Shown: positions 11,642-61,275, numbered from the stretch's first letter. The stretch: 64,000 nucleotides of DNA from an uncultured Gammaproteobacteria bacterium (GCA_964592785.1 CAZQHU010000001.1:45687-109686); one strand, 5' to 3'. Notes: generated by a model from the letters alone, not told the origin. Translations and numbers: made by a program.

Positions 11642-12053
11642 ATATACTATTGAGAGTCCGAAAAAATCATTGGCTGATTATGCCAACTCAAAAAGATGGT
11701 CCCTAAACAGGGTTGCGGTTACTTTAGAAGAAGAGTAAATTGCCTTATTTAAGCAAAATTTCTTGACTAACATAATGCATTTCCATTCTTTCCTAACGTT
11801 TTTTTCGGTTTCAATAGCTTTATTATTTAATGCCTTAAGTATAGCTGAAAACAGACTATTTGTCAAGATTTAAGATTTGCGAAGAGAAAAGGTTTATGGC
11901 TGTGGATAAATCCAATGTACATAAAAATTTATGTAAATTGGATCAAGGTGGTGAACGAAACGCAAATGCGACGTACATCACCATAGGTGGGCACATAAGC
12001 CCGCCGGAGTATATGATCTCCGGTTTCCCTCCTTGATCGTCGAACGATCTGGA

Positions 12054-12302
12054 TTACACCAGTGTCCAATTTCTGCCGTTGGTATTAATCTTGATCGTAG
12101 TTCTGGCTTTCTTCGGGTGGCGTTCGTCGGCGTTGACGATGACTACCAGGTTGTGGTCGATGACCACACCGAACCCGTCTCTGATGTCTCTGACGCAAGA
12201 GATCTTCCCTGTTCGTCCACTGTACTTGCCCCTCAGCATCAGGACGCGTGCTCTTCGAGCAACGAGTTCGTCATTGGTTTCTTTCAGTTGCTGTTGTTCC
12301 AT
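12054..12302 (-). CDS. Hypothetical 82-aa protein in a GC-rich island
   Basis: GGAGG ribosome-binding site 7 nt upstream of the ATG; promoter-like TTGACT-17-TATTTT overlapping the truB terminator; local GC far above the surrounding sequence. Confidence 0.4.
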   Translation of the reverse strand: MEQQQLKETNDELVARRARVLMLRGKYSGRTGKISCVRDIRDGFGVVIDHNLVVIVNADERHPKKARTTIKINTNGRNWTLV

Positions 12303-12329
12303 TTTAACCTCCAATTGAATAAACCAAAA

Positions 12330-20165: not shown

Positions 20166-20316
20166 AAATATATAAATTTGGACAAAAATAAAAACCCCCG
20201 CCTTTCAGTTAACTTTCGAGGCGGGGTTTATTTTTGAGGTAGCCCCTAGGCGCGTGTTGAGGGCACGGCTTTGGGGCTTGGTTTGGAGGGCATAGAACCT
20301 CCGATTTTCCGACGCC

Positions 20317-20535
20317 TCACCTGCTGGCATGGCGTACGGGTAAAGAAAGAGCCTCGCGGTCGATCGCGATCGGTCGTCTGTCGATCCGAGAAGCGGCATA
20401 GAAGCCGTCTATGAGGACCGAGCCGTCCGGAGCGAAACCAACCACTTGGACGATACCATGCCCCTCACAATGGAACCAACGTCCCACTTGGGGTTCACGG
20501 TCATCGTCAACCAGAAATTCCTTACGTCCTTCCAT
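20317..20535 (-). CDS. Hypothetical 72-aa protein in GC-rich island C
   Basis: GGAGGTGAAAAATG ribosome-binding site; composition contrast with flanks. Confidence 0.4.
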   Translation of the reverse strand: MEGRKEFLVDDDREPQVGRWFHCEGHGIVQVVGFAPDGSVLIDGFYAASRIDRRPIAIDREALSLPVRHASR

Positions 20536-20653
20536 TTTTCACCTCCTTTGTGGAAGGGATAAGAGTAGTATAGGTTGTTGATAAGAATTTTTTAAGAAAC
20601 TTGTCAAGAGTTAATAAATATTTGTCTTATTTACATTTTGTCCACTTTTTTAA

Positions 20654-20682
20654 TTGACAATTTTTAAAAAATTAAGTAACAT
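20654..20682 (+). promoter_or_regulatory. Sigma70-like promoter TTGACA-N17-TAACAT
   Basis: Read directly; matches the promoter architecture at 26866 and 41985. Confidence 0.45.
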
Positions 20683-20689
20683 TTATTTG

Positions 20690-21107
20690 ACGTTGGTCCA
20701 GCGACGTTGCCTTTGGGGATAAGATCCTCACAACGTGTCCTGGAGTAAACCAACGAGTAGTCGAGGGGGCTAAGCCCCAATGTATAAGGATGGCCCACGT
20801 GCCATCCGAAGAACGGCGGTTCCTATACCGCCATGTACACTGGCGGGTTGGCTGCAAGATGCCAACCGCCACTCGCGGGCGCACGTCGCCCGGGTTCCCG
20901 GGGGCTGTGGTTACTTTGCCCCCACGCACTTCAGTGGCTTGCTACCTTTCGAGGCGCAGGCTTAGCTCTCCTGGATTTCCGGGACTGAAGTGACTGCTGA
21001 TGGTTCCCGTCGTGGTACTGTCCAAGGAGGGGGGAAGATTAGAGCAGATAATGTCTTCCCGCACCTCATACTTTAGACACCACCCAAAAGGGTGGTGTTT
21101 TTTTATT
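20690..21107 (+). ncRNA. Candidate structured noncoding RNA of about 415 nt, promoter to intrinsic terminator, GC-rich, class unknown
   Basis: Promoter at 20654-20682; terminator ACACCACCCAAAAGGGTGGTGTTTTTTT at the 3-prime end; multiple internal hairpins; only short ORFs in all frames. Confidence 0.35.
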
Positions 21108-21214: not shown

Positions 21215-21310
21215 TTTTAGGAATGTCATGCTGAACTTGTTTCAGCATCTTTCCATAAAATGTATTTTTTAAATGATTTGTATTGAGAAAGACCCTGAAA
21301 CAGGTTCAGG
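21215..21310. repeat. Twin-hairpin repeat element (ATGCTGAACTTGTTTCAGCAT ... ACCCTGAAACAGGTTCAGGGT) immediately upstream of infB; second copy at 36985-37080
   Basis: Near-identical copy after the pyrH-like gene; the two hairpins are inverted copies of each other. Confidence 0.65.
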
Positions 21311-23350
21311 GTGATAAACATTATGAACGTCACAGAACTCGCTAGACAATTGAGAATAAACACCAAAGAATTGTTGGATGTACTCCCGCAGTATGGTTTT
21401 GATATCGGAGCTAGAGCGGTAAAAGTAGATGACAAAGTTGCAGATAAGATTATGCGTCAGTGGAGGTATATTAAGCGAGATTTGGAAGAAAAGAAAAAGA
21501 AAGAAATAGAAGAGAGAAAACTCAAAGAAAAGGAATTGCGTCGAGAAAGTGGTCAGACAGTAGAACTACCAGAAGTGATTACAGTTAGACTTTTTGCAGA
21601 AAAATTAAATTTACCGGTTACTCAGATTATTACCGAGCTCATGAAGAATGGTATTTTGGCCAATCAAAATCAAAATATTGATTATGATACAGCGGCTATC
21701 TTAGCTGGTGAGTTGGGTTTTTTTGTAAAAAAAGAAGAAGGTGAAACCATTCGTAAAGCTCAGAGTGAAGAAGAAAAGGCCAAAGCTCTGGAAGAAGCTT
21801 TGAGTAAATTGGAAAATTTGGAACCTCGTTCTCCTGTGGTAGTAGTGATGGGTCATGTTGATCATGGTAAGACCAAATTATTGGATTCTATTAGAAATGC
21901 CAATATTATTGATACTGAAGCCGGTGGCATTACTCAGCATATTGGTGCTTATCAGACTATCTGGAAAGACCCCAAGACCAAAGAAGAAAGAGCTCTTACT
22001 TTCATTGATACACCGGGCCATGAAGCTTTTACAGTGATGCGCAGTCGTGGAGCCAAGATTGCGGATATTGCTATTATGGTGGTGGCGGCCGATGATAGTG
22101 TCAAACCTCAGACTGAGGAAGTTATCAAGATTATTCAAGCAGCCAAATTGCCGTTTGTCGTGGCGATCAATAAGATCGATAAAGAAGGCGCCGATCCTAC
22201 CCGGGTGCGCGCAGATTTGGCGCAACGAGGTATTCAGAGTGATGAATGGGGTGGTGCTGTGCCTATGGTAGATATCTCTGCTAAACAAAATTTAAACATA
22301 GACAAATTATTGGATGTCATTCTCTTGGTGGCGGATATGAATGCTGATAAAATTCAAGCTAACCCTCATATTCCAGCGATTGGTACGATTATTGAATCAC
22401 ATGTGGATAAGGGGATGGGTCCGGTGGCCACTGTTCTAGTACAAGCCGGGACTCTACGTACCAATGATCCTTTGGTAGTTAATGGTGAAATTTATGGAAA
22501 AGTAAGAGCCATGAAAAACTACAAAGGCGAAAATATTAGTGAAGCTATTCCTTCCACCCCTGCGCAAATTATTGGTTTCAAAGTGGCTCCAGAAGTAGGG
22601 GATATTCTAGATGTAGGCAGGGCTGACAACGCTGAGAAAATCGATGTGCGTCAAAAACGTGGTTTGCAAACCGGAGCGGAAAAACAAACCATTGTCGTGG
22701 CCGAAGAAGGAGATGAAAACGTCAAAAAAACTTTAAATCTACTTATCAAAGCCGATGTTTTGGGTTCTTTGGAAGCGATCATTGGTTCTTTGGAAAAATT
22801 GAAACATGAAGAAGTGGGAGTAAAAATTGTTGGTAAGGGCTTGGGTAATATTACAGAGGATGATGTGCATAAGGCCGAAGCCGGTGAAGCGTTGGTTGTG
22901 GGTTTCAATGTAAATGCCACGGGCATTGCCGAGGAATTGATGAATGATAAAAATATCCAGTTCAAACACTATGATATTATTTATGATTTGATCAATTGGG
23001 TAAAAGAAGAGCTGGAGAAAATGTTAGATGTAGAAAAAATTGTTACAGAAATAGGCCGAGTAAAAGTTTTAGCTATTTTTAGAACTGATAAAAATGCCAT
23101 GACTATAGGCGGAAGAGTGGAGGATGGTAAAGTTATTCCTGGTTTATTGGCGCGTATCAAGCGTGATGGTCTATTGATCGGTACCGGAAAGATTTCTCAG
23201 TGTCAAGTCGGTCAAGCAGTAATGAAAGAAGTAATTCAAGGCACAGAATGTGGTATGCGTTTTGAAGGAAGAGAAAAAATTGAAGAAGGTGATGTTTTGG
23301 AGATTTACCGAGAAGAAAGTAAGATTAGAAAAATTATTTTTGAAAAATAA
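21311..23350 (+). CDS. infB: Translation initiation factor IF-2
   Basis: G-domain VVVMGHVDHGKTKLLD, DTPGHEAF, NKID; full-length architecture. Confidence 0.9.
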   Translation: MINIMNVTELARQLRINTKELLDVLPQYGFDIGARAVKVDDKVADKIMRQWRYIKRDLEEKKKKEIEERKLKEKELRRESGQTVELPEVITVRLFAEKLNLPVTQIITELMKNGILANQNQNIDYDTAAILAGELGFFVKKEEGETIRKAQSEEEKAKALEEALSKLENLEPRSPVVVVMGHVDHGKTKLLDSIRNANIIDTEAGGITQHIGAYQTIWKDPKTKEERALTFIDTPGHEAFTVMRSRGAKIADIAIMVVAADDSVKPQTEEVIKIIQAAKLPFVVAINKIDKEGADPTRVRADLAQRGIQSDEWGGAVPMVDISAKQNLNIDKLLDVILLVADMNADKIQANPHIPAIGTIIESHVDKGMGPVATVLVQAGTLRTNDPLVVNGEIYGKVRAMKNYKGENISEAIPSTPAQIIGFKVAPEVGDILDVGRADNAEKIDVRQKRGLQTGAEKQTIVVAEEGDENVKKTLNLLIKADVLGSLEAIIGSLEKLKHEEVGVKIVGKGLGNITEDDVHKAEAGEALVVGFNVNATGIAEELMNDKNIQFKHYDIIYDLINWVKEELEKMLDVEKIVTEIGRVKVLAIFRTDKNAMTIGGRVEDGKVIPGLLARIKRDGLLIGTGKISQCQVGQAVMKEVIQGTECGMRFEGREKIEEGDVLEIYREESKIRKIIFEK

Positions 23351-23354
23351 TTTT

Positions 23355-23942
23355 ATGTCAGATTTACAAAAATTAAGGGGGTTTGCTTCAATGGAACGTT
23401 TTGCCAAAATAACCAATGATAAAGGTGAACCAGTACTCAACTCAGCAGTGGATATAGAAATAGTCAAAAGTCAGGATATGGATTTTAAACAGATAGAAGC
23501 CAAAGGTGAAAAAGATCCAAAAATGGTCAATTCTCCAACCATAGAAGAAAGTAAAGATTTTGGTGGAGAAAAATTATTTCAAAAATATTTGGAAATTATT
23601 TTTAGAAAATTTCCAGGTGAGATTTATCGGGCTGGAAATGTTAATGAGCGCGCTTTGGGTGATCGGGTAAAGTTGACACAAGGAAGAGGGGAATATATTT
23701 ATATAATTCCAGTCTCTTTGTCTGAACAAATGAAAAAACTTTTGGAAGAACCAGTAGATTTGGGTGTGGATGATCCAGGTATAGAATTTTCCAAAATGAC
23801 TGGCTTGAGTGAAGATATTTTGGACCAAAACAATCTTGGTTTTACTCGTAAAATGGAAATCAATGGGCAATTTTTTACGGTTAAGTTTTTGTATGGTCAA
23901 GAAAAAGAAGTATCTCCTGGCTCTTATCAGGAGGCTGCTTGA
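23355..23942 (+). CDS. Hypothetical protein (start moved to the ATG after the infB stop)
   Basis: ORF with the same codon bias as the host; no recognisable motif. Confidence 0.4.
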   Translation: MSDLQKLRGFASMERFAKITNDKGEPVLNSAVDIEIVKSQDMDFKQIEAKGEKDPKMVNSPTIEESKDFGGEKLFQKYLEIIFRKFPGEIYRAGNVNERALGDRVKLTQGRGEYIYIIPVSLSEQMKKLLEEPVDLGVDDPGIEFSKMTGLSEDILDQNNLGFTRKMEINGQFFTVKFLYGQEKEVSPGSYQEAA

Positions 23943-24034
23943 TCGGAGTTATCCACTTCTTGCCAGTATTTTTTTAGAATGTTAAAATAGACCCTGTACT
24001 GCAAAAGTACAGGGTTAATTTTTTAATATTTATT

Positions 24035-24361
24035 ATGTCACACGTAAATTTGACAGATCAAAATTTCGAGGAGGAAGTAGTTAAATCAACAGTTCCGGTG
24101 TTGGTAGATTTTTGGGCGCCCTGGTGTGGTCCTTGCCAGATGATGGGTCCGATTGTTGAAGAGTTGGCAGGTGAACTTGATGCCAGTAAAGTGAAAATTG
24201 CCAAGCTTAATGTTGATGAAAATCAGGTTTCAGCTGGGAAATTTCAAGTAATGAGTATTCCCACTTTCCTTGTTTTCAAAGGTGGTCAAGTTGTTGATCA
24301 AATGGTCGGTGGTGTACCAAAAGAAAAGTTGAAAGAGATGCTGGAAAAACACCTGGCTTAA
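24035..24361 (+). CDS. trxA: Thioredoxin
   Basis: WCGPC active site, 108 aa. Confidence 0.85.
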   Translation: MSHVNLTDQNFEEEVVKSTVPVLVDFWAPWCGPCQMMGPIVEELAGELDASKVKIAKLNVDENQVSAGKFQVMSIPTFLVFKGGQVVDQMVGGVPKEKLKEMLEKHLA

Positions 24362-24464
24362 AAAAGTGATAAAAATATTTAAACAATCCTGATCTATTCA
24401 GGATTGTTTGCTTTTGGAATATGTTATATAATAATTATAGTTTAGTTTTAATTTATTCAATTAT

Positions 24465-25391
24465 ATGAAGAAAAATTGGAAAATATTTCTGGGCATTGTT
24501 ATTTTGGTTTTGGTGGTAGTCTTGGCTTTTTTTGCTTTGTCTAGCAGTAGGAAAATTGCTGACAAAAATGGTTTATCTTTTTCGGTCAATGAGATGGCTA
24601 GAGATACTGCCAGTTTTGGAGTTTCTTTTGGTGGTGTTTCTGGTTCAGCTATGAAGATTGCTACAGCACCAGAAGCTGATAGTTATAACCAAGAATCTCA
24701 AAACATCAAAGAAAGAATGATTATCAAAACCGGCTCTCTATCTATGGTGGTAGAAGATGTGAGAGAGGGGGTACGCCAAATTATTCAATATGCCACTGAT
24801 AATGCAGGCTTTGTGGTGCACAGTAATATTTATAAGTCAGGCTTGTCACCAGTAGGTGAAGTCAGTATCCGCATTCCGGTTGCGCTTTTTGACAGCGGTC
24901 TAGGAGAAATAAAAAAACTTGGGGAAGTTAAGAGTGAGTCAGTCAATGGTCAAGATGTTACCGAAGAATATGTAGACCTTGATTCCCAGTTAAAAAATTT
25001 GCGAGCAGCAGAAAACCAATTTTTACAGATTATGAGTCGGGCAGTGAAGATTGAAGATGTGTTGGCAGTACAAAGAGAATTGACCAATGTCCGCGGTCAG
25101 ATTGAAAGTATTCAAGGTCGAATGAAATATTTGACCCAAAGCGTGGAAATGTCCACTTTGACCGTTTATTTATCCACCGATCCTAGTGTTTTGCCGGCAG
25201 TTGATCAAGAAAATAAATGGAAACCCTGGGCTGAGATCAAAGCCGCCGCTAGAAGTCTTTTGGAGGTAGGCAAGAGTTTGGCGAATTTTGTTATTTGGCT
25301 AGTGATTTTTATTCCTGTCTGGTTGGTGGTAGGTTTGGTGGTTTGGATGGTGTTGAGAATCATTAAGAAGAGAAAAAATTTAAACATGTAA
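24465..25391 (+). CDS. Membrane-anchored protein with N- and C-terminal TM helices (DUF4349-like architecture)
   Basis: Signal-anchor, coiled-coil middle, C-terminal hydrophobic segment. Confidence 0.4.
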   Translation: MKKNWKIFLGIVILVLVVVLAFFALSSSRKIADKNGLSFSVNEMARDTASFGVSFGGVSGSAMKIATAPEADSYNQESQNIKERMIIKTGSLSMVVEDVREGVRQIIQYATDNAGFVVHSNIYKSGLSPVGEVSIRIPVALFDSGLGEIKKLGEVKSESVNGQDVTEEYVDLDSQLKNLRAAENQFLQIMSRAVKIEDVLAVQRELTNVRGQIESIQGRMKYLTQSVEMSTLTVYLSTDPSVLPAVDQENKWKPWAEIKAAARSLLEVGKSLANFVIWLVIFIPVWLVVGLVVWMVLRIIKKRKNLNM

Positions 25392-25409
25392 AGATTAGTT
25401 AAAAAGTTT

Positions 25410-25490
25410 TTAAAGTTCATAAAGTTTATAAAGTATCAGATTTTGTTTGGTCTTTATACTTTATGGACTTTTTACTTTATAAACTTAGGT
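25410..25490. repeat. Inverted pair of AAAGTTCATAAAGT-type repeats (family 3) forming an intergenic hairpin
   Basis: AAAGTTCATAAAGTTTATAAAGTATCAG...CTTTATACTTTATGGACTTTTTACTTTATAAACTT. Confidence 0.6.
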
Positions 25491-25554
25491 AGTTATCCAC
25501 TATTGAAAGGTTTTTGAACGAGTAGTAGAATATATGGGCTTTTAAAAAATATTT

Positions 25555-26814
25555 ATGAACAATCAATTTGAAAATGCTTTGGCCCAGTTAGATAAGGCAG
25601 CCAGAATCATGAACCTAGATAAAAATATTCATGAGGTTTTGAAATATCCGGATAGAGTTTTGACTGTGGCTATTCCGGTCAAGATGAATAGTGGTGAAAC
25701 AAAAGTCTTTACTGGTTTTAGATCTCAATACAATGATGCACTTGGTCCTTATAAAGGCGGAATTCGCTATCATTCGGGTGTTAGTCTGGAAGAAGTGAAA
25801 GCTTTGTCTTTTTGGATGATGATTAAATGCGCTACTGTAAATATTCCTATGGGTGGTGGCAAGGGTGGAATAATAGTTGATTCCAAGCAATTATCGGAAA
25901 ATGAATTGGAACAACTTTCTCGTGGTTATGTGCAGAAATTATGGCGTTATTTTGGTTCAGACAAAGATGTGCCAGCTCCTGATATGTACACCAATGGCAA
26001 GATCATGGGTTGGATGAGGAATGAGTTTGAAAAATTATCTGGTCAAGCAGATCCAGGATTTATCACTGGCAAATCTCTAGCTGATGGTGGTTCAGAAGGT
26101 AGAGAAACTGCCACAGCTCAAGGCGGGCTCTATACTGTGAGAGAATTGGCCAAAAGAGTTGGTTTGAAACCAGAGGAAACTACTGTGGCTGTGCAGGGCA
26201 TGGGTAATGTTGGGGGTTTTATGGCAAAATTATTAAAGCAAGATGGTTATCGAGTGGTAGCGATTAGTGATTCCAAAGGTGGAGTTGTAGTAAGGAATAA
26301 GGAAGAAGGAATAAAGAATAATGAGCGTTTGAATCTTGATGAAGTTTTTCAACATAAAGAAAAAACCGGTTCATTATCAGGTTTGGCAGTAGTACAAAAT
26401 ATTTCCAATTCAGAACTTTTGGAGTTACCAGTGGATATTCTGATTCCAGCAGCTATGGAAAATCAGATTACTATGGATAATGTGAATAATATCAAAGCAA
26501 AATATATTGTGGAGATGGCTAATGGTCCAACAACACCAGAAGCTGATGAAATTTTGAAAGAGAGAGGAGTAATCCTTGTTCCTGATGTTTTGAGTAATGC
26601 TGGTGGTGTGACAGTGTCATATTTTGAGTGGTATCAAAATGTACATAATGAAAAATGGAATGAAGCAGAAGTTTTTGCCAAGCTTGAGCCAATCATGATT
26701 ACCGCTTTTAATGAAGTTTGGGAGACAAAAGAAAAATATAATATTGATATGAGAACTGCGGCTTTTATCAAAGCGATTGAGAGGGTGGCAGGGCGTATGT
26801 CATCCCGAGCGTAG
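25555..26814 (+). CDS. gdh: Glutamate dehydrogenase (Glu/Leu/Phe/Val dehydrogenase family); the 3-prime end overlaps a family-1 repeat
   Basis: KGGIRYH region, GGGKGG motif, Rossmann GMGNVGG. Confidence 0.85.
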   Translation: MNNQFENALAQLDKAARIMNLDKNIHEVLKYPDRVLTVAIPVKMNSGETKVFTGFRSQYNDALGPYKGGIRYHSGVSLEEVKALSFWMMIKCATVNIPMGGGKGGIIVDSKQLSENELEQLSRGYVQKLWRYFGSDKDVPAPDMYTNGKIMGWMRNEFEKLSGQADPGFITGKSLADGGSEGRETATAQGGLYTVRELAKRVGLKPEETTVAVQGMGNVGGFMAKLLKQDGYRVVAISDSKGGVVVRNKEEGIKNNERLNLDEVFQHKEKTGSLSGLAVVQNISNSELLELPVDILIPAAMENQITMDNVNNIKAKYIVEMANGPTTPEADEILKERGVILVPDVLSNAGGVTVSYFEWYQNVHNEKWNEAEVFAKLEPIMITAFNEVWETKEKYNIDMRTAAFIKAIERVAGRMSSRA

Positions 26815-26865
26815 TCGAGGGATCTCTTTGTTATAAAATACCTGCCTCTTCGGCGGGTTTTGTTG

Positions 26866-26894
26866 TTGACATTTTTTTTGATAGTTGTAAGATA
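26866..26894 (+). promoter_or_regulatory. Sigma70-like promoter TTGACA-N16-TAAGAT
   Basis: Read directly; near-identical to the promoter at 41985-42012. Confidence 0.45.
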
Positions 26895-26923
26895 AAGTTA
26901 TCTCGTTGGCATGGAGGTGCCAG

Positions 26924-27070
26924 ATGGATTCGATCAGTCCTGGATGGGTGGTCATTGGCCTGGTGGGTCTGTTCATCTTCGGATTTCTCATCCGGAGGGC
27001 AGTGACAGTGCACCGCCACAACGCGCGCGTCTCGGATTCCGAGAAGAAGACGGAGGAGGCGACGTGCTGA
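26924..27070 (+). CDS. Small hydrophobic peptide (48 aa; single TM then a basic/acidic tail), GC-rich island D
   Basis: GGAGGtgccagATG ribosome-binding site; MDSISPGWVVIGLVGLFIFGFLIRRAV...; own promoter and terminator. Confidence 0.4.
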   Translation: MDSISPGWVVIGLVGLFIFGFLIRRAVTVHRHNARVSDSEKKTEEATC

Positions 27071-27147
27071 AGGTCGCCACACCCGAGTGCAGTCGGGTGA
27101 AGTTTCGTAGGAGTGGGCGCGTACTGCATAGCGCGCCCCTTCACAAC

Positions 27148-27186
27148 AAAAAACCACCTCGAATTTTCGGGGTGGGTTTATTTTAG
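27148..27186 (+). terminator. Intrinsic terminator after the small peptide gene
   Basis: AAAAAACCACCTCGAATTTTCGGGGTGGGTTTATTTT. Confidence 0.6.
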
Positions 27187-27458
27187 GGAAGTACAGAGGG
27201 TGTCACCAGACACACCCCCTGTACGAGAAAGGAACGGTTTTCCTCAATACGTTGGGTTCAAGGAACCCTGTCTTTGTCCACGGCACAAGAGCAAGTAACT
27301 GGAAATGGGGGTTGGGGCTCAAGCATCGTCGGCATGAGACGGGGTTGGAACAGGCACAAGGCACTGCGACGAACCACAGACGTATGGGCGGCGAGGAAAC
27401 TGGCAATCGTATTAGACCATGATTTTTCTAAAAAGTAAACTTATTTTGTGGATAAAAA

Positions 27459-27718
27459 ATCCCCGCGTCAAATGCGGGGTTTAAAAATGAGGCGTCCCGG
27501 GCGACGGAGCAAGGTGCCTCCGTCGCCCGGGGAAAGGAACACGTCAGTTCAGCATGAGGGCACTTACGTCCCCTTAGTTAAGGGCGGGGTCATCACACCT
27601 CGCGCCCGTAGCCACACTGGTCTTTTTCTTTTGGTTCACTCGTCGCTACTACAAAAGAGGTTGGGCAGGCGCAGAACGCGCCCTCAACCGGATCCAGTTT
27701 TGAACCGACTGAACTGAC
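27459..27718 (-). ncRNA. Candidate structured RNA of about 260 nt on the minus strand (12-bp terminal closing helix ACGUCAGUUCAG/CUGAACUGACGU, a large GC hairpin, and a terminator)
   Basis: Promoter-like TTTACA-N17-TTAAAT at 27725-27760 on the minus strand; terminator CCCCGCATTTGACGCGGGGATTTTTT. Confidence 0.3.
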
Positions 27719-27798
27719 GTTACTATATTTAAACACATTATATTTAATTTGTAAATGCCTTGATTTTTTAGTTTGAAAAGAGTAAAATAAGATTAAAT

Positions 27799-28578
27799 AT
27801 GTTAAATTACGCTAAACAAATTACCAAAGAAGCCGGCAAATTGGCTTTGGGTTATTATAAAGATGGGGTTGCTTTTAAAGTAAAAAGTGAACCAAGTGAT
27901 CTTGTTACCGAAGCTGATACTGCTGTTAATGATTTTTTGGTTAAGAAAATTAAGAAGAAATTTCCTAAACATGGAATTATTAGTGAAGAATTGGAAGAAC
28001 CAATAAATTCTCACGCTGAGTATGTTTGGGTGTTGGATCCCATAGATGGCACAGGAAATTTTGCTGCTCATATCCCAATGTGGTGTGTGATGGTGGGGAT
28101 TGAAAAGAAAGGCAAGCCTTTTATTGGGGTTGTTTATGATCCAATACAAGATGAACTTTATTATGCTGAAGCAGGCAAGGGTGCATTTTTAAACGGTAAA
28201 AAAATCCATGTCAATAACAAAGAGAAAGTTGATTTTAGTTTTTTGTCAGTTTGTCCTGGGCGCTATATGCCGGGTAATCCTTATTCATCAGAAGAATATC
28301 CAAGATATGCTAAATTTTTACAAAATTTAATGGGTGATAAAGGTTTTTGGTTTACTTATTATCGTTGTAATATTTCTTTTTGTCATTTGGCCAAAGGCAG
28401 TATTGATGGAGTAATAATGAATGGTTGTCTTTATCATGATTATCTGGCTCCCTATGTGATAGCTACCGAAGCTGGGGCCAAATTTACCGATAGCTATGGT
28501 AAGAAGTGGACCAAAGAGAAGAAGGATTCAGTCATTGCCAATCCCAAAATGCATAAAAATTTGCTTCGTTTATTCTGA
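27799..28578 (+). CDS. Inositol monophosphatase family protein (SuhB/IMPase-like)
   Basis: WVLDPIDGTGNF motif. Confidence 0.75.
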   Translation: MLNYAKQITKEAGKLALGYYKDGVAFKVKSEPSDLVTEADTAVNDFLVKKIKKKFPKHGIISEELEEPINSHAEYVWVLDPIDGTGNFAAHIPMWCVMVGIEKKGKPFIGVVYDPIQDELYYAEAGKGAFLNGKKIHVNNKEKVDFSFLSVCPGRYMPGNPYSSEEYPRYAKFLQNLMGDKGFWFTYYRCNISFCHLAKGSIDGVIMNGCLYHDYLAPYVIATEAGAKFTDSYGKKWTKEKKDSVIANPKMHKNLLRLF

Positions 28579-28671
28579 ACGAAGTGAAGAATCTTTTTTA
28601 AATAATTAAATATTCATCTAAAATGTGCGAGGTAGGAAAGATCCTTCGCTTCGCTCAGGATGACTGGCAGT

Positions 28672-31600
28672 ATGTCAAAATACGATCATAAAAAAATTGA
28701 AAGTAAATGGCCCGCCTCCGCTAAAGCTACGGCGGGTAAACACTATGATCCGAAGGCTATTGAAAATAAATGGCAATTATTTTGGGAACGTGATAAAACT
28801 TTTGAAGTTACTGAGGATGAAACTAAAAAGAAATTTTATGTTTTGGATATGTTTCCTTATCCTTCTGGTGCTGGTCTTCATGTTGGTCATCCGAAGGGCT
28901 ATATTGCGACTGATGTTATGGCTCGCATGAAAATGATGCAGGGCTTCAATGTTCTTCATCCAATGGGTTGGGATGCTTTTGGACTTCCAGCAGAGAATTA
29001 TGCAATTGCGAATAAAGTTCATCCTTCGGTGGCGACAGCCAAAAATATTGAAACTTTCAAAAAGCAACTGGGTTTACTAGGTTTTACTTATGATTGGGAG
29101 AGGGAAGTGAATACTACTGATCCAAATTATTACAAATGGACCCAGTGGGCCTTTATTCAAATGTTTAAGCGTGGTTTGGCTTATGAATCTTTTGAACCGA
29201 TCAACTGGTGCCCCACTTGTCAGACTGGCCTTGCTAATGAAGATCTTGAAGATGGTAAGTGCGAACGTTGTGGCACTTTGGTCGAACGTAAGCCATTACG
29301 TCAATGGGTTTTGAAAATTACAGATTATGCTGAAAGATTATTAAATGATATTGATAAATTAGAACAATGGCCAGAACCGATCAAAGAAATGCAAAGAAAT
29401 TGGATTGGGAAGAGTGAAGGTGCAGAAATAAACTTTCGCGTCATGTTGAGCGAAGTCGCGTCGGACGCGACGAAGTCGAAACATCCCGTGGAACAAAGGG
29501 ATCCTTCCCCGCAAGGCGGGGCTCAGGATGACGATGTGGTGCTTACAGTTTTTACCACTCGTCCTGACACTCTTTTTGGGGTAACATATATGGTCGTTGC
29601 TCCTGAACATCCGTTGCTCGGGAATAATGAATTAGGAATTAAGAATTATGATGAAGTGTTGGGGTACATTGCCAAAGCAAAAAACAAATCAGACTTAGAA
29701 CGTACAGAATTACAGAAAGAAAAGACTGGAGTCGAGTTGAAGGGAGTGAAGGCAGTCAACCCAGTGAATGGCGAAGAGATCCCTATTTTTGTAGCGGATT
29801 ATGTTTTGATGAATTATGGCACTGGAGCCATCATGGCTGTGCCAGCACATGATGAGAGAGATTTTGAGTTTGCAAAGAAGTTTGGTTTGCTAATGAAAGA
29901 AGTAGTAGTTGAACAAGTAAATTCTCGTTTTAGTGATTCTGAGCCACGCAGAATAGCTATAGCCATTGTTGAAAATGATAAAGGGGAAATTCTTATACAA
30001 TCAGATACCCGTAATAATAAAACCACTTATTGTTTGCCAGGTGGGGGGGTAGATGAAGGAGAAGACATTAGAGAGGCATCTTTGAGGGAAATTAAAGAAG
30101 AGACGGGTTATATCGAATTTGAGAGTATAAAGAAAGTGGGAACTTTGGAAGCAAATTATTACAATCCTAGAAGAGAAATTAACCGACAAGCTTTAGCCAC
30201 CTGTTTTTCAATGAAATTAAAAAGTAATAAAAAGATAGAAGTTCAATTTTCTGAAACAGAAAAACAAGGGTTGATTAAACACTCTTGGTTGAGTAAGGAG
30301 GAAGCAATGAAAGTTTTATCAAGCGAAAATGCTTCTTCTGGTGAGGATCTTGCTTTATTTAAACGTTATTTGAAGAATAAAGATGAAGCCTTTTCAAATT
30401 TAGGTGTTGTTATCAATTCTGACTTCTTAAACGGCTTAGAAACAAGAGACGCCAAAGAAAAAATGATTCAATATTTAGAAGAAAAAAATATTGGTAAAAG
30501 AAAAGTGCAATACAAACTTCGTGATTGGGTATTTTCTCGTCAACGTTATTGGGGTGAACCAATTCCGCTTGTTCATTGTGAGAATTGTGAGAATAAAAAA
30601 TATAATTATATTTTTATTCATGGTTTTTCTTCAAGTTCTGAAAGAGGTTTTAAACCTTGGTTGAAAGAAGAATTAGAAAACAGAGGTCATAAGGTTTGGA
30701 ATCCTGATTTACCAAATACCAATAATCCTAGTGTTAATGAACAAGCTGAATTTATTTTGAAAAATTCACCATTTGCCATTGATGATAATTTAGTTTTGGT
30801 TGGACACAGTTTGGGTGGACCAGCGATTTACCGAATTTTAGAATCAATAAGCCACAAGATTGCTCGGGCTGTTTTGGTTGATCCGGTAGTTCGTCCACGA
30901 TTTAATGATCAAGATCGTCCAGAAGTGGTGGCTAGTTGTGATTGGAAGTTTAATTGGAAAAAAATAAAAAATAATTGTCAGCAATTTATTATTTTGGGTG
31001 ATATAAATAGACCAATTATAAAAAAGGAACATTTAATAGAGTTAGAAAAAAATCTATCAGCTGATTTATGGTGGGTGACTCCAAGAAATTATCATTTTAG
31101 CAGTCGTAATGGTGCAGTAGAAGATGAACCGACAATATTAAAAGCGGCCGTAGCTAATGGCTGGATTCCAGTTCCAGAAAAAGACTTGCCACTGGAACTT
31201 CCCAAAGTAGAAAACTATGAACCAAGTGGAACAGGGGAATCACCTTTGGCCAATATTGAAGAATGGGTGAATACCAAGTGTCCGGTGTGTGGTGGGCATG
31301 CTAAACGAGAAACAAACACTATGCCGCAGTGGGCGGGAAGCTGTTGGTATTACCTACGCTATTGTGATCCGAAGAATAAAAAAGAATTAATTAATAAAGA
31401 AAAAGAAAAATATTGGAATCCAGTGGATCTTTATGTTGGTGGAGCAGAACATGCTACTCGTCACCTCATCTATGCTAGATTTTGGCATAAGTTTCTTTAT
31501 GATATTGGCGTAGTTTCTCATGAGGAGCCATTTATCAGATTACAAAATGTGGGTTTGATTTTGGCCGAAGATGGTCGCAAGATGAGTAAGCGCTGGAATA

Positions 31601-32250
31601 ATGTAATTAATCCTGATGATGTTGTTGCAGAATATGGTGCGGATGCCATGCGACTTTATGAAATGTTTATGGGTCCATTTGATCAGCCAGTAGCTTGGAG
31701 TACTCAGGGAGTGGTAGGGATGAGAAGGTTTTTGGAGAAGGTATGGGCACTCAAGTCAAAAGTTCATAAAGTCGAAAAGTCTGTAAAGTCTAATATTGAT
31801 ACCTTATTACATCAAACTATCAAAAAGGTATCTGAAGATATTGAAGCCATGCGATATAATACAGCCATCTCTCAAATGATGATATTGGTAAACGAAATGA
31901 TCAAAGAAGAAAAATTATTCCTTACTCATTATTCTTTATTCCTTCAATTATTGTCACCGTTCGCTCCACATATAGCCGAAGAATTATGGAGTGAATTGGG
32001 AAATAAAGAATCAATCTTCAAATTTGATTGGCCAAAATATGATCCAGCTTTGATTCAAGACGAAAAGATTACTATTGCCGTACAAGTAAATGGTAAATTG
32101 CGTGATACTTTTGATATTCCAGTTGATATGTCTGAAGAAGAAATTAAAAAATTAACTCTGTCATCTGAAAAAGTTCAAAAATGGCTAGAGGGTAAAGAGC
32201 CAAAGAAAGTTATTTATGTGAAAGGTAGGCTAGTGAGTGTGGTGGTGTGA
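28672..32250 (+). CDS. leuS: Leucyl-tRNA synthetase with an inserted NUDIX domain (about 29944-30390), an inserted alpha/beta serine-hydrolase domain (about 30598-31160), and several in-frame short-repeat insertions. The ORF track start at 28660 is an alternative
   Basis: HVGHPKGY (HIGH), CP1 editing domain TTRPDT, KMSKR; Nudix box GGGVDEGEDIREASLREIKEETG; hydrolase IFIHGF...GHSLGG; both insertions are flanked by LeuRS segments conserved in other bacteria (RDWVFSRQRYWGEPIPLVHC, IPVPEKDLP). Confidence 0.9.
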   Translation: MSKYDHKKIESKWPASAKATAGKHYDPKAIENKWQLFWERDKTFEVTEDETKKKFYVLDMFPYPSGAGLHVGHPKGYIATDVMARMKMMQGFNVLHPMGWDAFGLPAENYAIANKVHPSVATAKNIETFKKQLGLLGFTYDWEREVNTTDPNYYKWTQWAFIQMFKRGLAYESFEPINWCPTCQTGLANEDLEDGKCERCGTLVERKPLRQWVLKITDYAERLLNDIDKLEQWPEPIKEMQRNWIGKSEGAEINFRVMLSEVASDATKSKHPVEQRDPSPQGGAQDDDVVLTVFTTRPDTLFGVTYMVVAPEHPLLGNNELGIKNYDEVLGYIAKAKNKSDLERTELQKEKTGVELKGVKAVNPVNGEEIPIFVADYVLMNYGTGAIMAVPAHDERDFEFAKKFGLLMKEVVVEQVNSRFSDSEPRRIAIAIVENDKGEILIQSDTRNNKTTYCLPGGGVDEGEDIREASLREIKEETGYIEFESIKKVGTLEANYYNPRREINRQALATCFSMKLKSNKKIEVQFSETEKQGLIKHSWLSKEEAMKVLSSENASSGEDLALFKRYLKNKDEAFSNLGVVINSDFLNGLETRDAKEKMIQYLEEKNIGKRKVQYKLRDWVFSRQRYWGEPIPLVHCENCENKKYNYIFIHGFSSSSERGFKPWLKEELENRGHKVWNPDLPNTNNPSVNEQAEFILKNSPFAIDDNLVLVGHSLGGPAIYRILESISHKIARAVLVDPVVRPRFNDQDRPEVVASCDWKFNWKKIKNNCQQFIILGDINRPIIKKEHLIELEKNLSADLWWVTPRNYHFSSRNGAVEDEPTILKAAVANGWIPVPEKDLPLELPKVENYEPSGTGESPLANIEEWVNTKCPVCGGHAKRETNTMPQWAGSCWYYLRYCDPKNKKELINKEKEKYWNPVDLYVGGAEHATRHLIYARFWHKFLYDIGVVSHEEPFIRLQNVGLILAEDGRKMSKRWNNVINPDDVVAEYGADAMRLYEMFMGPFDQPVAWSTQGVVGMRRFLEKVWALKSKVHKVEKSVKSNIDTLLHQTIKKVSEDIEAMRYNTAISQMMILVNEMIKEEKLFLTHYSLFLQLLSPFAPHIAEELWSELGNKESIFKFDWPKYDPALIQDEKITIAVQVNGKLRDTFDIPVDMSEEEIKKLTLSSEKVQKWLEGKEPKKVIYVKGRLVSVVV

Positions 32251-41936: not shown

Positions 41937-42019
41937 TGTGTATTTATATAATATAAAACCGACCAAGTGGTCGGTTTTTTGTTCTTGACATTTTTTATGT
42001 TTATGTTAAGATTGTTTGG

Positions 42020-42283
42020 CTGATGAACCTTGCGTCACGTGTATGGATGGCCTGAGAGCCATAGCACTGATGTGAGTTTTGTTGGCTGGGGGCTGACAGC
42101 GGTCCGATACGGACTGAGTTTTCGACGAAAGTCGACGATTGTGGTCTCGGACCGCTGTCGCCCCTGTTTTGAACGGAGGCTAAGGGGGTGTGTTTTTCTG
42201 TATACACATCCCCCGCGTTCCAAATAAATAAATTTTGTTTATTTAGAATGAAAAATAATCCCGATATTATGTCGGGATTATTT
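42020..42283 (+). ncRNA. Candidate GC-rich structured RNA (promoter TTGACA-N16-TAAGAT at 41985-42012; long helix GGGGCTGACAGCGGTCCGA/TCGGACCGCTGTCGCCCC; terminator)
   Basis: Promoter nearly identical to that of island D; nested hairpins; terminator AATCCCGATATTATGTCGGGATTATTTTT. Confidence 0.3.
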
Positions 42284-45443: not shown

Positions 45444-45631
45444 TCAAGGAATAATGAATAAAGAATAAGGAATAAAAAATGCCCCGTATATTGCGAGGCA
45501 TTTTTATTTAGATTCATCAGTTCCCCAAAATTTTTATTTTTTAAAAACTTTGGGGATATGGAACTGACGAAGAACAAAAGGTACAAGCGAATCAGCCCCA
45601 CATCCCAGCGCGAAAAAACGCAGAGCAGGAG

Positions 45632-45910
45632 CTAGGCATCCAGGCGACCGGCATTGTCCAGGGAGAAGTAGAACCTCACATCGGTCAGGGTGAGGGGGGC
45701 GCTGGGATCCTCGGGGACTTCGTATTCGATGTAGAGAAGTCTTCCGCTGATCTTGGCCTCACAGAGGAACTGCGCCATTCCTCGGCCTTGGAATCGGCAG
45801 ACCCGTTGTGGGCCCACTTCGAAGGTGCAAAATCCTTCGCCGTTCGGCCCGGTGAGAGTGAGCAAGCTCACTCTTGCACTCTTGAACTGCATGGGCATCT
45901 TCCCTGGCAT
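45632..45910 (-). CDS. Hypothetical 92-aa protein in a GC-rich island
   Basis: GAGGAAACGAAATG ribosome-binding site; composition contrast with flanks. Confidence 0.4.
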   Translation of the reverse strand: MPGKMPMQFKSARVSLLTLTGPNGEGFCTFEVGPQRVCRFQGRGMAQFLCEAKISGRLLYIEYEVPEDPSAPLTLTDVRFYFSLDNAGRLDA

Positions 45911-45989
45911 TTCGTTTCCTCGTTGTTGAAACCCAAAATAACATTAGCCCAAAAATGTTTTTTTGTCAAGAGTAAACAAAAAAACTGGC

Positions 45990-48500: not shown

Positions 48501-48566
48501 TAGTATTCACGCTCAGAATATAGAAATATTTTGATCGGGGATTCTAAATTGATAAAGGAGGGTGGC

Positions 48567-48803
48567 ATGGTTCCAGATGCCGATGTTTACCAAAGGTTCC
48601 AGATCATTCTGGAGAGCAGTCTCACGGGAAAGGTTTACGAGAAGTGGGCGGCGACAAGCTACCTGCCAATCGTGGCTGGAGCAGTGTTGCGACGGGTGGC
48701 TTCTTTTCCTATGGAGGAGGAATCTAACCGCGCAGTGGTGGAGGCTGCACGCAAGTGTCTTTCAGAAGGCGCTGGCAATGAGGTGTCGCCATGCGTTGTC
48801 TGA
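48567..48803 (+). CDS. Hypothetical 78-aa protein, GC-rich island F
   Basis: AAAGGAGGGTGGCATG ribosome-binding site. Confidence 0.4.
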   Translation: MVPDADVYQRFQIILESSLTGKVYEKWAATSYLPIVAGAVLRRVASFPMEEESNRAVVEAARKCLSEGAGNEVSPCVV

Positions 48804-49118
48804 AGATGCGAAGGAGGTTTTTGTTCTTTCTTTTTTTACCCGCTGGTTCATGGAGGTAAGCCAAGCGGGGTTCGTCTTAGGCAATAATACTTGTTGTTTA
48901 AGATAAATACTATATGAAACAAAATACAATAAATTTTTATTTCTTTTATTTTAATTACTACAGGCGGTGTGTTGTTTAGTTTTGTTTAAAAAATAAAAGA
49001 CAACCACTGCCAAGTGGTTGTTTTATTTTGTTCTTTAAATTTTAATGTCTCAGAAGGTGGTCAGGAAGTTCCTGATTAATGATGGGTCACTAATAAAAAG
49101 GAGGGCGTTGTGGAGGAA

Positions 49119-49184
49119 ATGACTTGGGAGGAGATCGTTCGGTCCATGGGTAAGTCGGTGGGTCCTTCTGGTAATGGCTGTTGA
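49119..49184 (+). CDS. Possible 21-aa leader/micro-ORF (MTWEEIVRSMGKSVGPSGNGC) directly upstream of, and translationally coupled to, the next gene
   Basis: AAAAAGGAGGG ribosome-binding site; its stop sits beside the next RBS. Confidence 0.25.
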   Translation: MTWEEIVRSMGKSVGPSGNGC

Positions 49185-49198
49185 AAGGAGGAATGACG

Positions 49199-49558
49199 AT
49201 GTTTAGACTGCCTAAAGGTGTTTGTTTCTTCTTTATGAAAGATCCTGCTGATCGGGGGGTTCACCATCACCGCGGTAGAGGTCATAGGAGGACTGAAGAT
49301 CTGCCGGTCAAAGACCACGAACTTGGTCTAGGGTTTGAAGCTTGGGCGAGAAAGAAGGTGAGAGTTCCCACTGAACAGGAGACTCGTACCTACACCTATC
49401 ATCCGCTCATCACCGAACACTGCTTGGCTTGTGGTTGTCCACCAGATCGTCTGGGTGGTGGCCTTAACACCATTCCTTTCCCTGTTTTCACTTTGAAAGT
49501 GGACAGAGAAGGTGTGGTACGCCATGTTTGTGGTAAGGAGGTTTTCCGAATGAAGTAA
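49199..49558 (+). CDS. Hypothetical 119-aa Cys/His-rich protein, GC-rich island F
   Basis: AAAGGAGGAATGACGATG ribosome-binding site; HCLACGC...HVCGKE possible metal-binding site. Confidence 0.4.
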   Translation: MFRLPKGVCFFFMKDPADRGVHHHRGRGHRRTEDLPVKDHELGLGFEAWARKKVRVPTEQETRTYTYHPLITEHCLACGCPPDRLGGGLNTIPFPVFTLKVDREGVVRHVCGKEVFRMK

Positions 49559-49595
49559 TTCGGAACGTCTGCCGGCGCGTTAGTCCGGCACTCAC

Positions 49596-50489
49596 TTATC
49601 TTCCAGTAATGAGACAAACAACTGCTCCAGTAAATTTCCAATTATTTTCAATCGCCTTTTTCAATCCAGCTACTGAAAGAGCGCTGTTTGGAGAAATTTT
49701 TATTTTGCAAGTTTCTTCTATCAGGTTGATTGAATCTCTAATCTCTGAGTCTGTCACCACCCAACCTTTGCCTTGGGTATTTTTTAAAATTTCTAAGATT
49801 TTTTCTTTGCGGTGAGCTATATTGTCAACAATTGCATCAGCCAAAGATGTGTCAGTTTTTTCTTCTGAATCTACCATTGGGTGGCAGGCAGTGGTTTGAA
49901 CAATATGAATTTGCGTTGGACAGTTTAATTTTTTAAAAGCTTCACCAAGTGCTTGAGCAGTAGTGCCACTGGAAGTAGGAACAAAAACTGCTTGTAAATT
50001 GGGGATTTTGCTCAGTTCTTCTGCCAATTCAAAATAACCTTCAAGTGCCAGGTCATCAGTGGATTGGCGCAAGAATTTTTTTGTGCCATTCTTATCTTCC
50101 AAAAAAGCTTCTTGCTTGGGATTTTCTACTTGTTCTAGAGAAATATTTTGGTCTTCAATTACAGTCATCAAGATTTTTAATTTTTCCGGATTAATATTTT
50201 TACCAATATAAATTTTCAATTTTATTTTTTGTTCATTATTTCGATTGTGAGCTTGAACAGCATGAATGGCGGCGAGTGCGGCATTGCCCGAAGAAGAAAT
50301 GACAAACTCTTGATAGGGTCCACCAATCGTTTCAGTATAAGGTCCAACTTTTGAATATTTTTTGATCATTATTGGCAGGGATCTTCCTTTGTGTGAACCA
50401 TATTTATGAAGATCTTCTCGTTTGAGATAAACTTCCGGAGTATTTAGAGTTTCTGCTAATTCAGGGTAAGACTGTTGAATAGTTTTCAT
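49596..50489 (-). CDS. PLP-dependent fold-type II enzyme (threonine synthase / cysteine synthase-like)
   Basis: KREDLHKYGSHKGR (PLP-lysine motif GS[FH]K[DG]R), SSGNAA glycine loop. Confidence 0.6.
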   Translation of the reverse strand: MKTIQQSYPELAETLNTPEVYLKREDLHKYGSHKGRSLPIMIKKYSKVGPYTETIGGPYQEFVISSSGNAALAAIHAVQAHNRNNEQKIKLKIYIGKNINPEKLKILMTVIEDQNISLEQVENPKQEAFLEDKNGTKKFLRQSTDDLALEGYFELAEELSKIPNLQAVFVPTSSGTTAQALGEAFKKLNCPTQIHIVQTTACHPMVDSEEKTDTSLADAIVDNIAHRKEKILEILKNTQGKGWVVTDSEIRDSINLIEETCKIKISPNSALSVAGLKKAIENNWKFTGAVVCLITGR

Positions 50490-55540: not shown

Positions 55541-55716
55541 AAGTCTAGATTATTTTATCAACAATTGACTAAAAAATCAAGTTTTGAAAATGCTTGAAAA
55601 ATTTTTGGATTTGTGTTTAAATAAATTGAAAGCTTGAATAAAAGAGCTGATGAGGTTGGGATTTACTCGTCCTAGTAGAGTTGATTTGGTCAGCTCTTTC
55701 ACAACTGGAGGCAATC

Positions 55717-56871
55717 ATGTCCATTGGTGGAGTGGTCATCACTACGGGCGTAGCCTGTGCCAAACTGGATCTGCTCAAGGTCATGATCGAGATGGTTCTC
55801 CAGGCAGGTCTTCAGCCGGTGTTGCGGATCAATACCGCGCATCACGGCAGTCCGTTGTTCCAGCAGATACTGGACGTGACCTGTGAAGCTAGGTATGCGT
55901 ATCCGGAAGGTGAAGTCCTGCTTCAGATGGACTTGCCTGGTCCGAAAATCCGCGCGCGGATTGCAAGCGGGGTCAAGGAAAGGGAACTCAAGCCTGGTGA
56001 TGAGATCTTCTTCGGCCATGAAGGCTGTCTACCGCAGTTCTCGTTCAACAATGGCCGTGAACTTCTCTGCCCCAATCTGCCCGAAGTGCTCTTTGGGCTG
56101 GAGGCGGGGATGGACATTGTCATGGCCGACGGTGCATTCCGTTTCCAGGTGAAGGAAGTGGTGGAGCAAAATCGTCTATTCCTGCTCGTGGTCTTGAGGG
56201 CCAAGGAAGTGTTCAAGGATTACCGTGGTGTTTCCTTCCCGAAACGGAGAGGTATCGGTGGTATCTGCTGCCCCACTCAGGAAGACCTAGACCTGGTACC
56301 GCTGGTAGTTTCTTCGAGTGCGAACATCGTTGCCCAATCCTTCACGCTGAACGGTGATTCCATTCGCACTCTGCGTTCGCAGATCGAGAAGTGCGGTGGA
56401 AGGAACGTGCAGGTGATGGCTAAGCCGGAAAACCGCGATGCCTTGTACAACTGGAGGAGCATCTGCGAAGCGAGCGATTCACTGATGGTTCCTCGGGGTG
56501 ACCTGGCAGTGGAAGTCTCCCTTCTGGATCTGCCTTTCATCCAGCAGATACTGGTCATTTGGGGACGTTCCTACAACAAGCCGGTCACCATTGGTACGGG
56601 GCTCTTGCGTAGCATGCTCGAAGACGACGAGTATGCACGTTCGGAAGCCACGGATGTCACGGTGGCGATTCAGCAGCTCTGGGGGACCCCAGGCTTCGTG
56701 ATGCTGACGAACGAAACCTGCGAGGGTAAACACCCGGCCGAGACCGTGGCAGTGATCCTGGCGACGGTCCAGAGGAACAGGAAGTATTTGGAGATCCTTC
56801 ACCATCTGGTTCCGACTGACTTGGACAGGTTCGAGGAGGAATATCGGGGGCTTTTGGACAGTTGCACTTGA
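55717..56871 (+). CDS. Divergent pyruvate-kinase-like TIM-barrel protein lacking the C-terminal domain, GC-rich island G
   Basis: GGAGGcaatcATG ribosome-binding site; DLPGPKIR, MAKPENRDAL, MVPRGDLAVEV and KPVTIGTGLLRSM parallel the PK motifs DTKGPEIR, KIENQEG, MVARGDLG and KPVICATQMLESM. Confidence 0.6.
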   Translation: MSIGGVVITTGVACAKLDLLKVMIEMVLQAGLQPVLRINTAHHGSPLFQQILDVTCEARYAYPEGEVLLQMDLPGPKIRARIASGVKERELKPGDEIFFGHEGCLPQFSFNNGRELLCPNLPEVLFGLEAGMDIVMADGAFRFQVKEVVEQNRLFLLVVLRAKEVFKDYRGVSFPKRRGIGGICCPTQEDLDLVPLVVSSSANIVAQSFTLNGDSIRTLRSQIEKCGGRNVQVMAKPENRDALYNWRSICEASDSLMVPRGDLAVEVSLLDLPFIQQILVIWGRSYNKPVTIGTGLLRSMLEDDEYARSEATDVTVAIQQLWGTPGFVMLTNETCEGKHPAETVAVILATVQRNRKYLEILHHLVPTDLDRFEEEYRGLLDSCT

Positions 56872-56940
56872 TCTCCCTTGGGAGGTGGAGGGAATCGTGG
56901 TCTGGTTGATTAGTGCGATAAGTAGAAAGGAGGTGTGATC

Positions 56941-57279: not shown

Positions 57280-57324
57280 TCCTGGGGGCTTGACTGACTG
57301 GCCGGCTTGTGTTAGGATAGTTTT

Positions 57325-61105: not shown

Positions 61106-61275
61106 AAAATATCCGCCCCGCGTATTGCGGGGCGGATATTTTTAATTTTAGAACTGTCCGATATTATTTTAAATTTCTAGATTTAGAAATTTAAAGGGGG
61201 GATCGGACAGTTCTTTTGGGGAGTGCAGTCCCAAAGAACGACTGATCCCACGAAGCTGAAGTGGCGACCGGTCTT

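Follow-up and report, generated by a model that had tools for sequence, protein, structure and literature searches.

A predicted small membrane-protein gene with a structured 3'UTR and two strain-specific, sRNA-like cassettes downstream of gdh in Candidatus Magasanikbacteria

MgrB, AcrZ and MgtS are small bacterial membrane proteins that act by modulating larger ones. The defining traits of a type I toxin-antitoxin (TA) system are a complementary sRNA and the inheritance of toxin and sRNA together (PMC2887945, PMC8309996). An intergenic region that is long and GC-rich within an AT-rich genome is an accepted sign of structured RNA (PMC6429828, PMC8723152), and the GC-IGR/DIMPL approach flags candidate structured ncRNAs (PMC6429828, PMC8723152, PMC11109978).

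Here we analysed a GC-rich island (island D) within a 64-kb stretch of DNA, hereafter the window. The island is bracketed by gdh (25555-26814) and an inositol-monophosphatase gene (27799-28578), and relatives of the encoded glutamate dehydrogenase place the window in Candidatus Magasanikbacteria (Patescibacteria/CPR), a group whose genomes are small, uncultured and poorly annotated. An earlier note on this DNA had placed the island well above its AT-rich background, which agrees with a GC content of 0.52 over 26753-27737 against 0.38 window-wide. The note had further listed a promoter-driven 48-aa hydrophobic peptide gene and, on the opposite strand, a strongly folded RNA, and had likened the arrangement to type I TA loci or small membrane-peptide modules. 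Its feature list was borne out with slightly corrected coordinates (Table 1). Our interpretation differs: we consider it likely, with a probability of roughly 0.7, that island D comprises three adjacent, independently inherited transcription units (U1, U2 and U3) and no two-component module. Our verdict is that U1 represents a new family of small membrane proteins encoded with a structured 3'UTR, while U2 and U3 are orphan, strain-specific sRNA-like cassettes.

Table 1. Features of island D, in positions of the window.
Feature	Position	Strand	Content or basis
U1, whole unit	26866-27186	+	promoter, GGAGG, 48-aa peptide, two 3'UTR hairpins, terminator
U1 promoter, TTGACA-16-TAAGAT	26866-26893 (TTGACA 26866-26871; TAAGAT 26888-26893)	+	promoter scan, 10/12 consensus matches
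U1 Shine-Dalgarno, GGAGG	26913-26917	+	6 nt upstream of ATG at 26924
U1 gene for a predicted 48-aa single-pass membrane peptide, unannotated	26924-27070	+	frame conservation, substitutions
U1 3'UTR hairpin 1, loop GUGCAG (conserved RNGC[A/G]G), stem 5-7 bp	27080-27099	+	alignment, covariance model
U1 3'UTR hairpin 2, loop ACUGCAUA (conserved CUGC, complementary to loop 1)	27115-27138	+	covariation
U1 intrinsic terminator	27154-27185 (stem 27154-27175, then T-run)	+	terminator scan
U2, 245-nt GC-rich insertion	27187-27432		strain presence/absence, substitutions
U3 cassette: promoter, predicted ~266-nt RNA, terminator	27455-27757	-	this genome only
U3 promoter-like site, TTTACA-17-(TG)TTAAAT	27755-27727 (TTTACA 27755-27750; TTAAAT 27732-27727)	-	read from sequence
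U3 core, predicted multi-branch domain with 12-13 bp closing helix	27541-27720	-	folding, inverted repeat
U3 14-bp G+C hairpin	27496-27531 (arms 27496-27509/27518-27531)	-	inverted-repeat check
U3 intrinsic terminator, 6-bp GC stem (27479-27461) then T6	27451-27479	-	terminator scan

The promoter, the GGAGG site and the 48-aa ORF of U1 are present as first described, the promoter now ending at 26893, and the terminator was recovered with its stem corrected to 27154-27175. The product of the ORF, MDSISPGWVVIGLVGLFIFGFLIRRAVTVHRHNARVSDSEKKTEEATC, contains one predicted transmembrane (TM) segment, W8-I23, followed by a charged tail, and the U1 mRNA folds with z = -4.1. Public annotation (NCBI, Logan) instead calls a 91-aa ORF (26911-27186) that extends across both hairpins and the terminator. 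This frame is wrong: between the window and its sister allele it accumulates 1 synonymous and 13 mostly radical changes, against 5 synonymous and 8 conservative ones in the 48-aa frame (I>V, F>A, R>K, H>Y, V>I etc.). A second pair of alleles, L118 and L135, differs by 6 synonymous and 15 non-synonymous changes in the peptide frame, which is the only frame open in that pair; across lineages, too, the 48-aa frame alone stays open and stops interrupt the others. The two ratios (5:8 and 6:15) put the dN/dS of the peptide only weakly below 1, so that selection on the protein is weak. Standard pipelines thus call a conserved small membrane-protein gene in the wrong frame, as a 91-aa "hypothetical".

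Five more alleles or lineages of Magasanikbacteria carry a U1-type unit 3' of gdh (L001/L006, L003, L060, L118 and L135), with peptides of 45-71 aa (45 aa in L060, 68 aa in L003, 70 aa in L135 and 71 aa in L118). All of these homologues combine a GC-rich ORF, preceded by GGAGG or GGAGGG, with an N-terminal TM helix and a basic/acidic tail, and a TTGACA-16-TAA(T/C)AT promoter, equally spaced from the ORF, occurs in L003, L060, L118 and L135 (in the last by sequence reading). The peptides of the distant lineages are only about 25-35% identical to that of the window; the ORF is still open in six alleles or lineages, and an R-H/Y-N-A-R motif recurs C-terminal to the TM segment. As expected of a conserved small membrane-protein gene in the generic sense, U1 therefore presents a Shine-Dalgarno-preceded TM ORF whose position and architecture are kept in six alleles or lineages.

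Codon composition sets the gene apart from its surroundings, with a GC3 of 0.76 in the 48-aa ORF against 0.27-0.30 in the flanking genes, and of 0.68-0.79 over the four peptide ORFs measured (the L060 ORF was left out). Such high values in an AT-rich genome (about 0.7-0.8 against about 0.3 for the genome) are unusual and point to selection at the level of the mRNA itself. Combined with the strong fold and a dN/dS little below 1, they could be taken to mean that U1 is a non-coding structured sRNA in which the 48-aa ORF is fortuitous. We regard this as very improbable, given that an ORF with a ribosome-binding site and a TM/charged-tail design has stayed open at such low identity, that the other frames carry stops and that the R-H/Y-N-A-R motif recurs. 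Judged from its sequence, U1 is a genuine gene passed on by vertical descent, and its predicted product is a small single-pass membrane protein. Its coding part varies unevenly: the window and L001 show 33 differences in about 6 kb (99.45% identity), 16 of which lie within the 92 nt of 26938-27029, the TM and juxtamembrane coding part of the peptide, which points to fast evolution or allelic exchange. The 3'UTR is identical between the two.

This 3'UTR contains two conserved hairpins that the earlier note had missed. In the stem of hairpin 1, A-U/G-C and C-G/U.G/G-C pairs covary or wobble between lineages, and hairpin 2 forms perfect stems of 8-11 bp with a different sequence in each of four lineages (L135 by sequence reading), at least two pair types being seen at 9 of its 11 positions. 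The GCAG and CUGC loops are complementary to each other: the window, L006 and L003 allow 6 contiguous pairs, L060, L118 and L135 only 4, and in L135 a G.U replaces an A-U pair. A covariance model of the 3'UTR, trained on the window, L006 and L003, picked up L060 independently (E = 1.5e-4; 439 kb searched) and matched nothing beyond L060 in these 439 kb of relatives. The two loops could kiss, and the resulting compact 3' structure may stabilise or regulate the mRNA. In the adjoining terminator stem, the L006 change G27170A turns a U.G into a U-A pair.

We propose that U1 would be transcribed from its strong sigma-70-type promoter and translated via GGAGG, yielding a peptide whose N-terminal TM helix precedes a tail that is first basic, then acidic; by the positive-inside rule, this tail would lie in the cytoplasm. 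Most likely, the peptide would modulate a membrane protein or a membrane property. Database searches gave it no family. A phmmer search with the 48-aa peptide against 1.84 billion representatives returned 0 matches, the gene was not found in a 15-billion-protein collection, and Pfam and NCBIfam gave sub-threshold generic TM noise for the peptide, PADLOC nothing. Searching with the mis-annotated 91-aa frame retrieved sister alleles only, and blastn of U1, U2 and U3 against 131 related loci retrieved sister strains only. At gathering thresholds, Rfam 15 identified three tRNAs in the whole window and zero families in island D; in E-value mode, the best matches over 26700-27900 were terminator look-alikes of 15-25 bits against thresholds of 38-72. 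The earlier statement that no family can be assigned thus stands for Rfam, Pfam, NCBIfam and PADLOC alike.

Sister-strain contigs, retrieved by exact-protein look-ups, revealed how the island is assembled. L001, L002 and L132 (SRR10276719-21) carry U1 only, L006 and L133 (SRR8925817, SRR8925793) carry U1 and U2, and this window alone carries U1, U2 and U3, which makes a natural series U1, U1+U2, U1+U2+U3 among near-identical strains. Over 21225-27186, L001 matches the window at 99.45% identity, with flanks at about 99.4%, and has the phosphatase promoter directly 3' of the peptide unit. The absence of U2 and U3 from this junction identifies them as separate, recent insertions or deletions; we propose that they would be recent strain-specific GC-rich insertions. 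U1 depends on neither of them.

U2, which the earlier note had not noticed, is a third separable GC-rich unit, located between U1 and U3. The differences between the window and L006 within it are all transitions (10/10), and the changes at paired sites keep pairing in 6/6 cases on the + strand and in 5/6 on the - strand. Alifold energies of -86 (+) and -71 (-) and the wobble-compatible changes favour the + strand slightly. None of its reading frames shows a synonymous excess between the window and L006. U2 is probably a structured RNA. For both U2 and U3, Rfam, phage/plasmid records (blastn with the island) and about 800 kb of related loci gave no match.

The anatomy of U3 was confirmed, including the 14-bp GC hairpin and the terminator, now read as 27479-27461 plus T6. 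The closing helix is real, its arms (27541-27552/27709-27720) being 100% complementary over 12 nt, a perfect inverted repeat with a chance expectation of 0.09 per window. As for the promoter-like element, a site is present by sequence reading, and the promoter scanner omits it because its -10 element TTAAAT fails the A-at-position-2 rule. The predicted start coincides with the first base of the closing helix. The U3 RNA folds with z = -6.4 (0/200 shuffles fold as well), and the core folds alike on both strands (z = -4.2 and -4.3). By these hallmarks, namely a promoter, a helix at the start site, a hairpin and a terminator on the same strand, U3 looks like a stand-alone sRNA gene. Its product would most likely be a stable and highly structured sRNA of about 266 nt that acts in trans or binds protein, independently of U1.

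Further searches brought no relatives of U3. An exact-pattern scan of JGI metagenomes for the closing helix gave 0 matches and is insensitive, since it requires 24 exact bases; a single-sequence covariance model run over 439 kb matched only U3 itself; a protein search with its only long ORF (89 aa, + strand), made for U3 alone of U2 and U3, returned nothing; and for the A-rich loop no targets were found within the window. U3 is not kept even among sister strains and is thus no housekeeping RNA. An origin as a MITE or IS element was rejected as well: the 12-bp inverted repeat is internal (27541-27720 inside 27455-27757) and does not mark the insertion boundaries, the junctions show no target-site duplication, and no second copy exists in the window or in the 439 kb searched from relatives.

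Because U3 lies directly 5' of the phosphatase gene at 27799 and its core folds equally on both strands, we also considered that its + strand might serve as a riboswitch-like cis-leader of that gene. This is extremely unlikely, as the conserved promoter of the gene (27760-27788), which is common to the U3-less strains, is situated downstream of U3. Moreover, the strong T-run terminator belongs to the minus strand, the + strand has no terminator or SD-sequestering element beyond the domain, Rfam gives no riboswitch match, and sister strains lacking U3 would express the same gene.

More weight is due to the view that U2, U3 or both are inert relics of GC-rich DNA that was acquired horizontally, and that their helices are leftovers or chance products with no functional RNA. 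Both are strain-specific, homologue-less singletons in the searches made, covariation is not assessable for them, and the window has other GC-rich islands, some with foreign-looking protein genes such as a pyruvate-kinase-like ORF (55681-56871). Nevertheless, we judge this view unlikely, if far from negligible. A promoter, a helix beginning at the predicted start, a same-strand intrinsic terminator and a fold of z = -6.4 would have to have come together in U3 by accident, together with an inverted repeat expected 0.09 times per window; in U2, the frames show no coding-like substitutions and the paired-site changes all keep pairing. We retain U2 and U3 as sRNA-like cassettes.

A hydrophobic peptide adjoining a structured RNA is not by that alone a type I TA system. 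Of the two likenesses drawn by the earlier note, that to a membrane-peptide module holds, in that five more alleles or lineages keep the frame, promoter, SD and TM-plus-charged-tail design, and that to a TA pair fails. U3 neither overlaps the U1 mRNA, from which it lies 270 nt away, nor complements it, the longest perfect match being 7 nt and the duplex energy no better than that of shuffles (z = +0.5), so that the toxin/antisense layout finds no support. The search for the peptide and the RNA as a pair in related genomes found carriers of U1, and U3 was absent from every other one.

A type I TA system could still be construed in two ways, with the peptide as membrane toxin and the antitoxin being either U3 acting in trans or a minus-strand U2 transcript whose 3' end overlaps that of U1 at a bidirectional terminator, as in bsrG/SR4. 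The 48-aa ORF does encode a small (<~60 aa) hydrophobic, membrane-spanning peptide with a toxin-like TM-plus-charged-tail shape, and its mRNA is highly structured (z = -4.1). The U1 terminator, being A-rich upstream and T-rich downstream, could also end minus-strand transcripts, including one of U2, for which sequence reading offers a weak promoter-like TTTACT-17-TCTAAT at 27438-27410; such a transcript would overlap U1 at the terminator only. Even so, we consider either arrangement improbable. No antisense sRNA or sRNA of extended complementarity accompanies the peptide gene, and no conserved antisense promoter over U1 was found in any lineage. Co-inheritance is missing too: U1 persists without U2 and U3 in L001, L002 and L132, and likewise in L003, L060, L118 and L135, where unrelated genes follow it downstream. 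The peptide matches none of the known type I toxin profiles (Hok, Ldr, Fst, TxpA etc.), and its fixed post-gdh position resembles vertical inheritance, unlike the mobility typical of TA systems.

Island D is one of many GC-rich promoter-to-terminator islands in the window that encode small proteins or strongly folding RNAs. An all-against-all comparison found promoter-like sequence alone in common, and CAGTTC/GAACTG, tried as a shared island-boundary motif, was dismissed with counts equal to chance. The islands are not all strain-variable, since island E is conserved in sister strains. Island C (41977-42232, +) has a TTGACA-17-TAAGAT promoter 81% identical to that of U1 over 36 nt, followed by an ORF-free GC-rich RNA of about 210 nt with the strongest fold of the window (z = -9.2); Rfam gave no match for this RNA, and a look-up of a flanking protein returned nothing. 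Island B (20176-21107) joins a minus-strand GC-rich ORF of 72 aa with a perfect AAGGAGGTG site (20317-20535) to a structured RNA-like unit of about 400 nt on the + strand that has a promoter and a terminator of its own (20690-21107, z = -6.4). The L001 contig begins just 3' of this island, and L003 has no GC-rich segment upstream of IF2. Four more regions (45544-45945, 61183-61601, 48550-49620 and 11930-12314) hold GC-rich mini-genes, in each of which a TTGACA promoter is combined with a strong SD and a terminator. Their products are orphan proteins of 78-92 aa, among them one that has a zinc-ribbon CxxC...CxxC, and the GC3 of these genes reaches about 0.7 against about 0.3 in their neighbours. 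A 1.9-kb block of 55% GC (55658-57600), which looks horizontally acquired, contains a 396-aa pyruvate-kinase-barrel-like ORF (Pfam PK, E = 7e-41), a 114-aa ORF and a strongly folding tail of 300 nt (z about -5 to -6).

Repeats are also dispersed through the window. Palindromic elements of about 35-50 nt, GTCATCCTGAGCG...GTCGAAGGATC, occur in both orientations (13824, 29439, 47068, 51734, 52394, 52454, 53362 and others), and a copy at 26803-26827 forms the last codons of gdh. The LeuRS gene (28660-32250, 1196 aa), with apparent NUDIX and alpha/beta-hydrolase domains (Pfam matches on the L001 orthologue), carries an in-frame insertion relative to L001 (1165 aa) at 29439-29532 that consists of two GTCATnnTGAGCG...GTCGAAnnATCCC repeat copies. 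Near-identical terminator hairpins, CCGCCCCGYRTATTGYGGGGCGG, occur three times (10046, 45474 and 61108), two of them adjoining the 3' ends of islands E and G, each after a long AT-looped hairpin. In another Magasanikbacteria genome (L016, 5440-6300), the post-gdh slot holds two tandem minus-strand GC-rich cassettes, both ending in a common sequence of about 50 nt, GTCGCTCACTTGGTTTAGTRTATTTACA..AAATATATTGAATCAAAAA, with a hairpin upstream whose loop can pair with the ACUUGG tail to form a pseudoknot, including one compensatory change.

The locus shows that promoter-to-terminator RNA cassettes are quickly gained or lost in these reduced genomes. Two more far-reaching readings can be put forward. 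In the first, the gdh-linked peptide gene would found a family specific to Magasanikbacteria, whose potentially toxic membrane peptide is controlled by a GC-rich 3'UTR of kissing hairpins and by no antisense RNA; in the second, the self-contained cassettes U2 and U3 would be RNA genes of a new kind that CPR bacteria exchange horizontally. We offer these readings as speculation and think them quite improbable.

Among described systems, Hok/Sok, Fst, TxpA/RatA and BsrG/SR4 share with U1 a small single-TM peptide with a charged tail and a highly structured mRNA that stands alone between a promoter and a terminator of its own, and share with island D a structured RNA nearby on the opposite strand. 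Island D differs from them in that no RNA overlaps or complements the peptide mRNA, that the nearby RNAs are missing in most carriers of the peptide, that the peptide gene keeps a fixed slot 3' of gdh, and that its sequence matches no toxin family. The core of U3 resembles bacterial Y RNA/YrlA and 6S RNA in the pairing of its 5' and 3' ends in a long closing helix, but it has no Rfam match and no Ro/Rsr gene nearby, and its multi-branch shape is not 6S-like. U2, U3 and other islands of the window are of the same GC-rich, strongly folding intergenic kind as the candidates flagged by GC-IGR/DIMPL, whereas the published motifs are defined by covariation over many representatives and U2 and U3 are without any. 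Another parallel to U1 is offered by the small membrane proteins MgrB, AcrZ and MgtS (PMC10730256), which U1 resembles in size (45-71 aa), in having one predicted TM helix, in being monocistronic and in being overlooked by annotation. U1 is unrelated to them in sequence and is distinguished from their class by an unusually high GC3 and a conserved two-hairpin 3'UTR.
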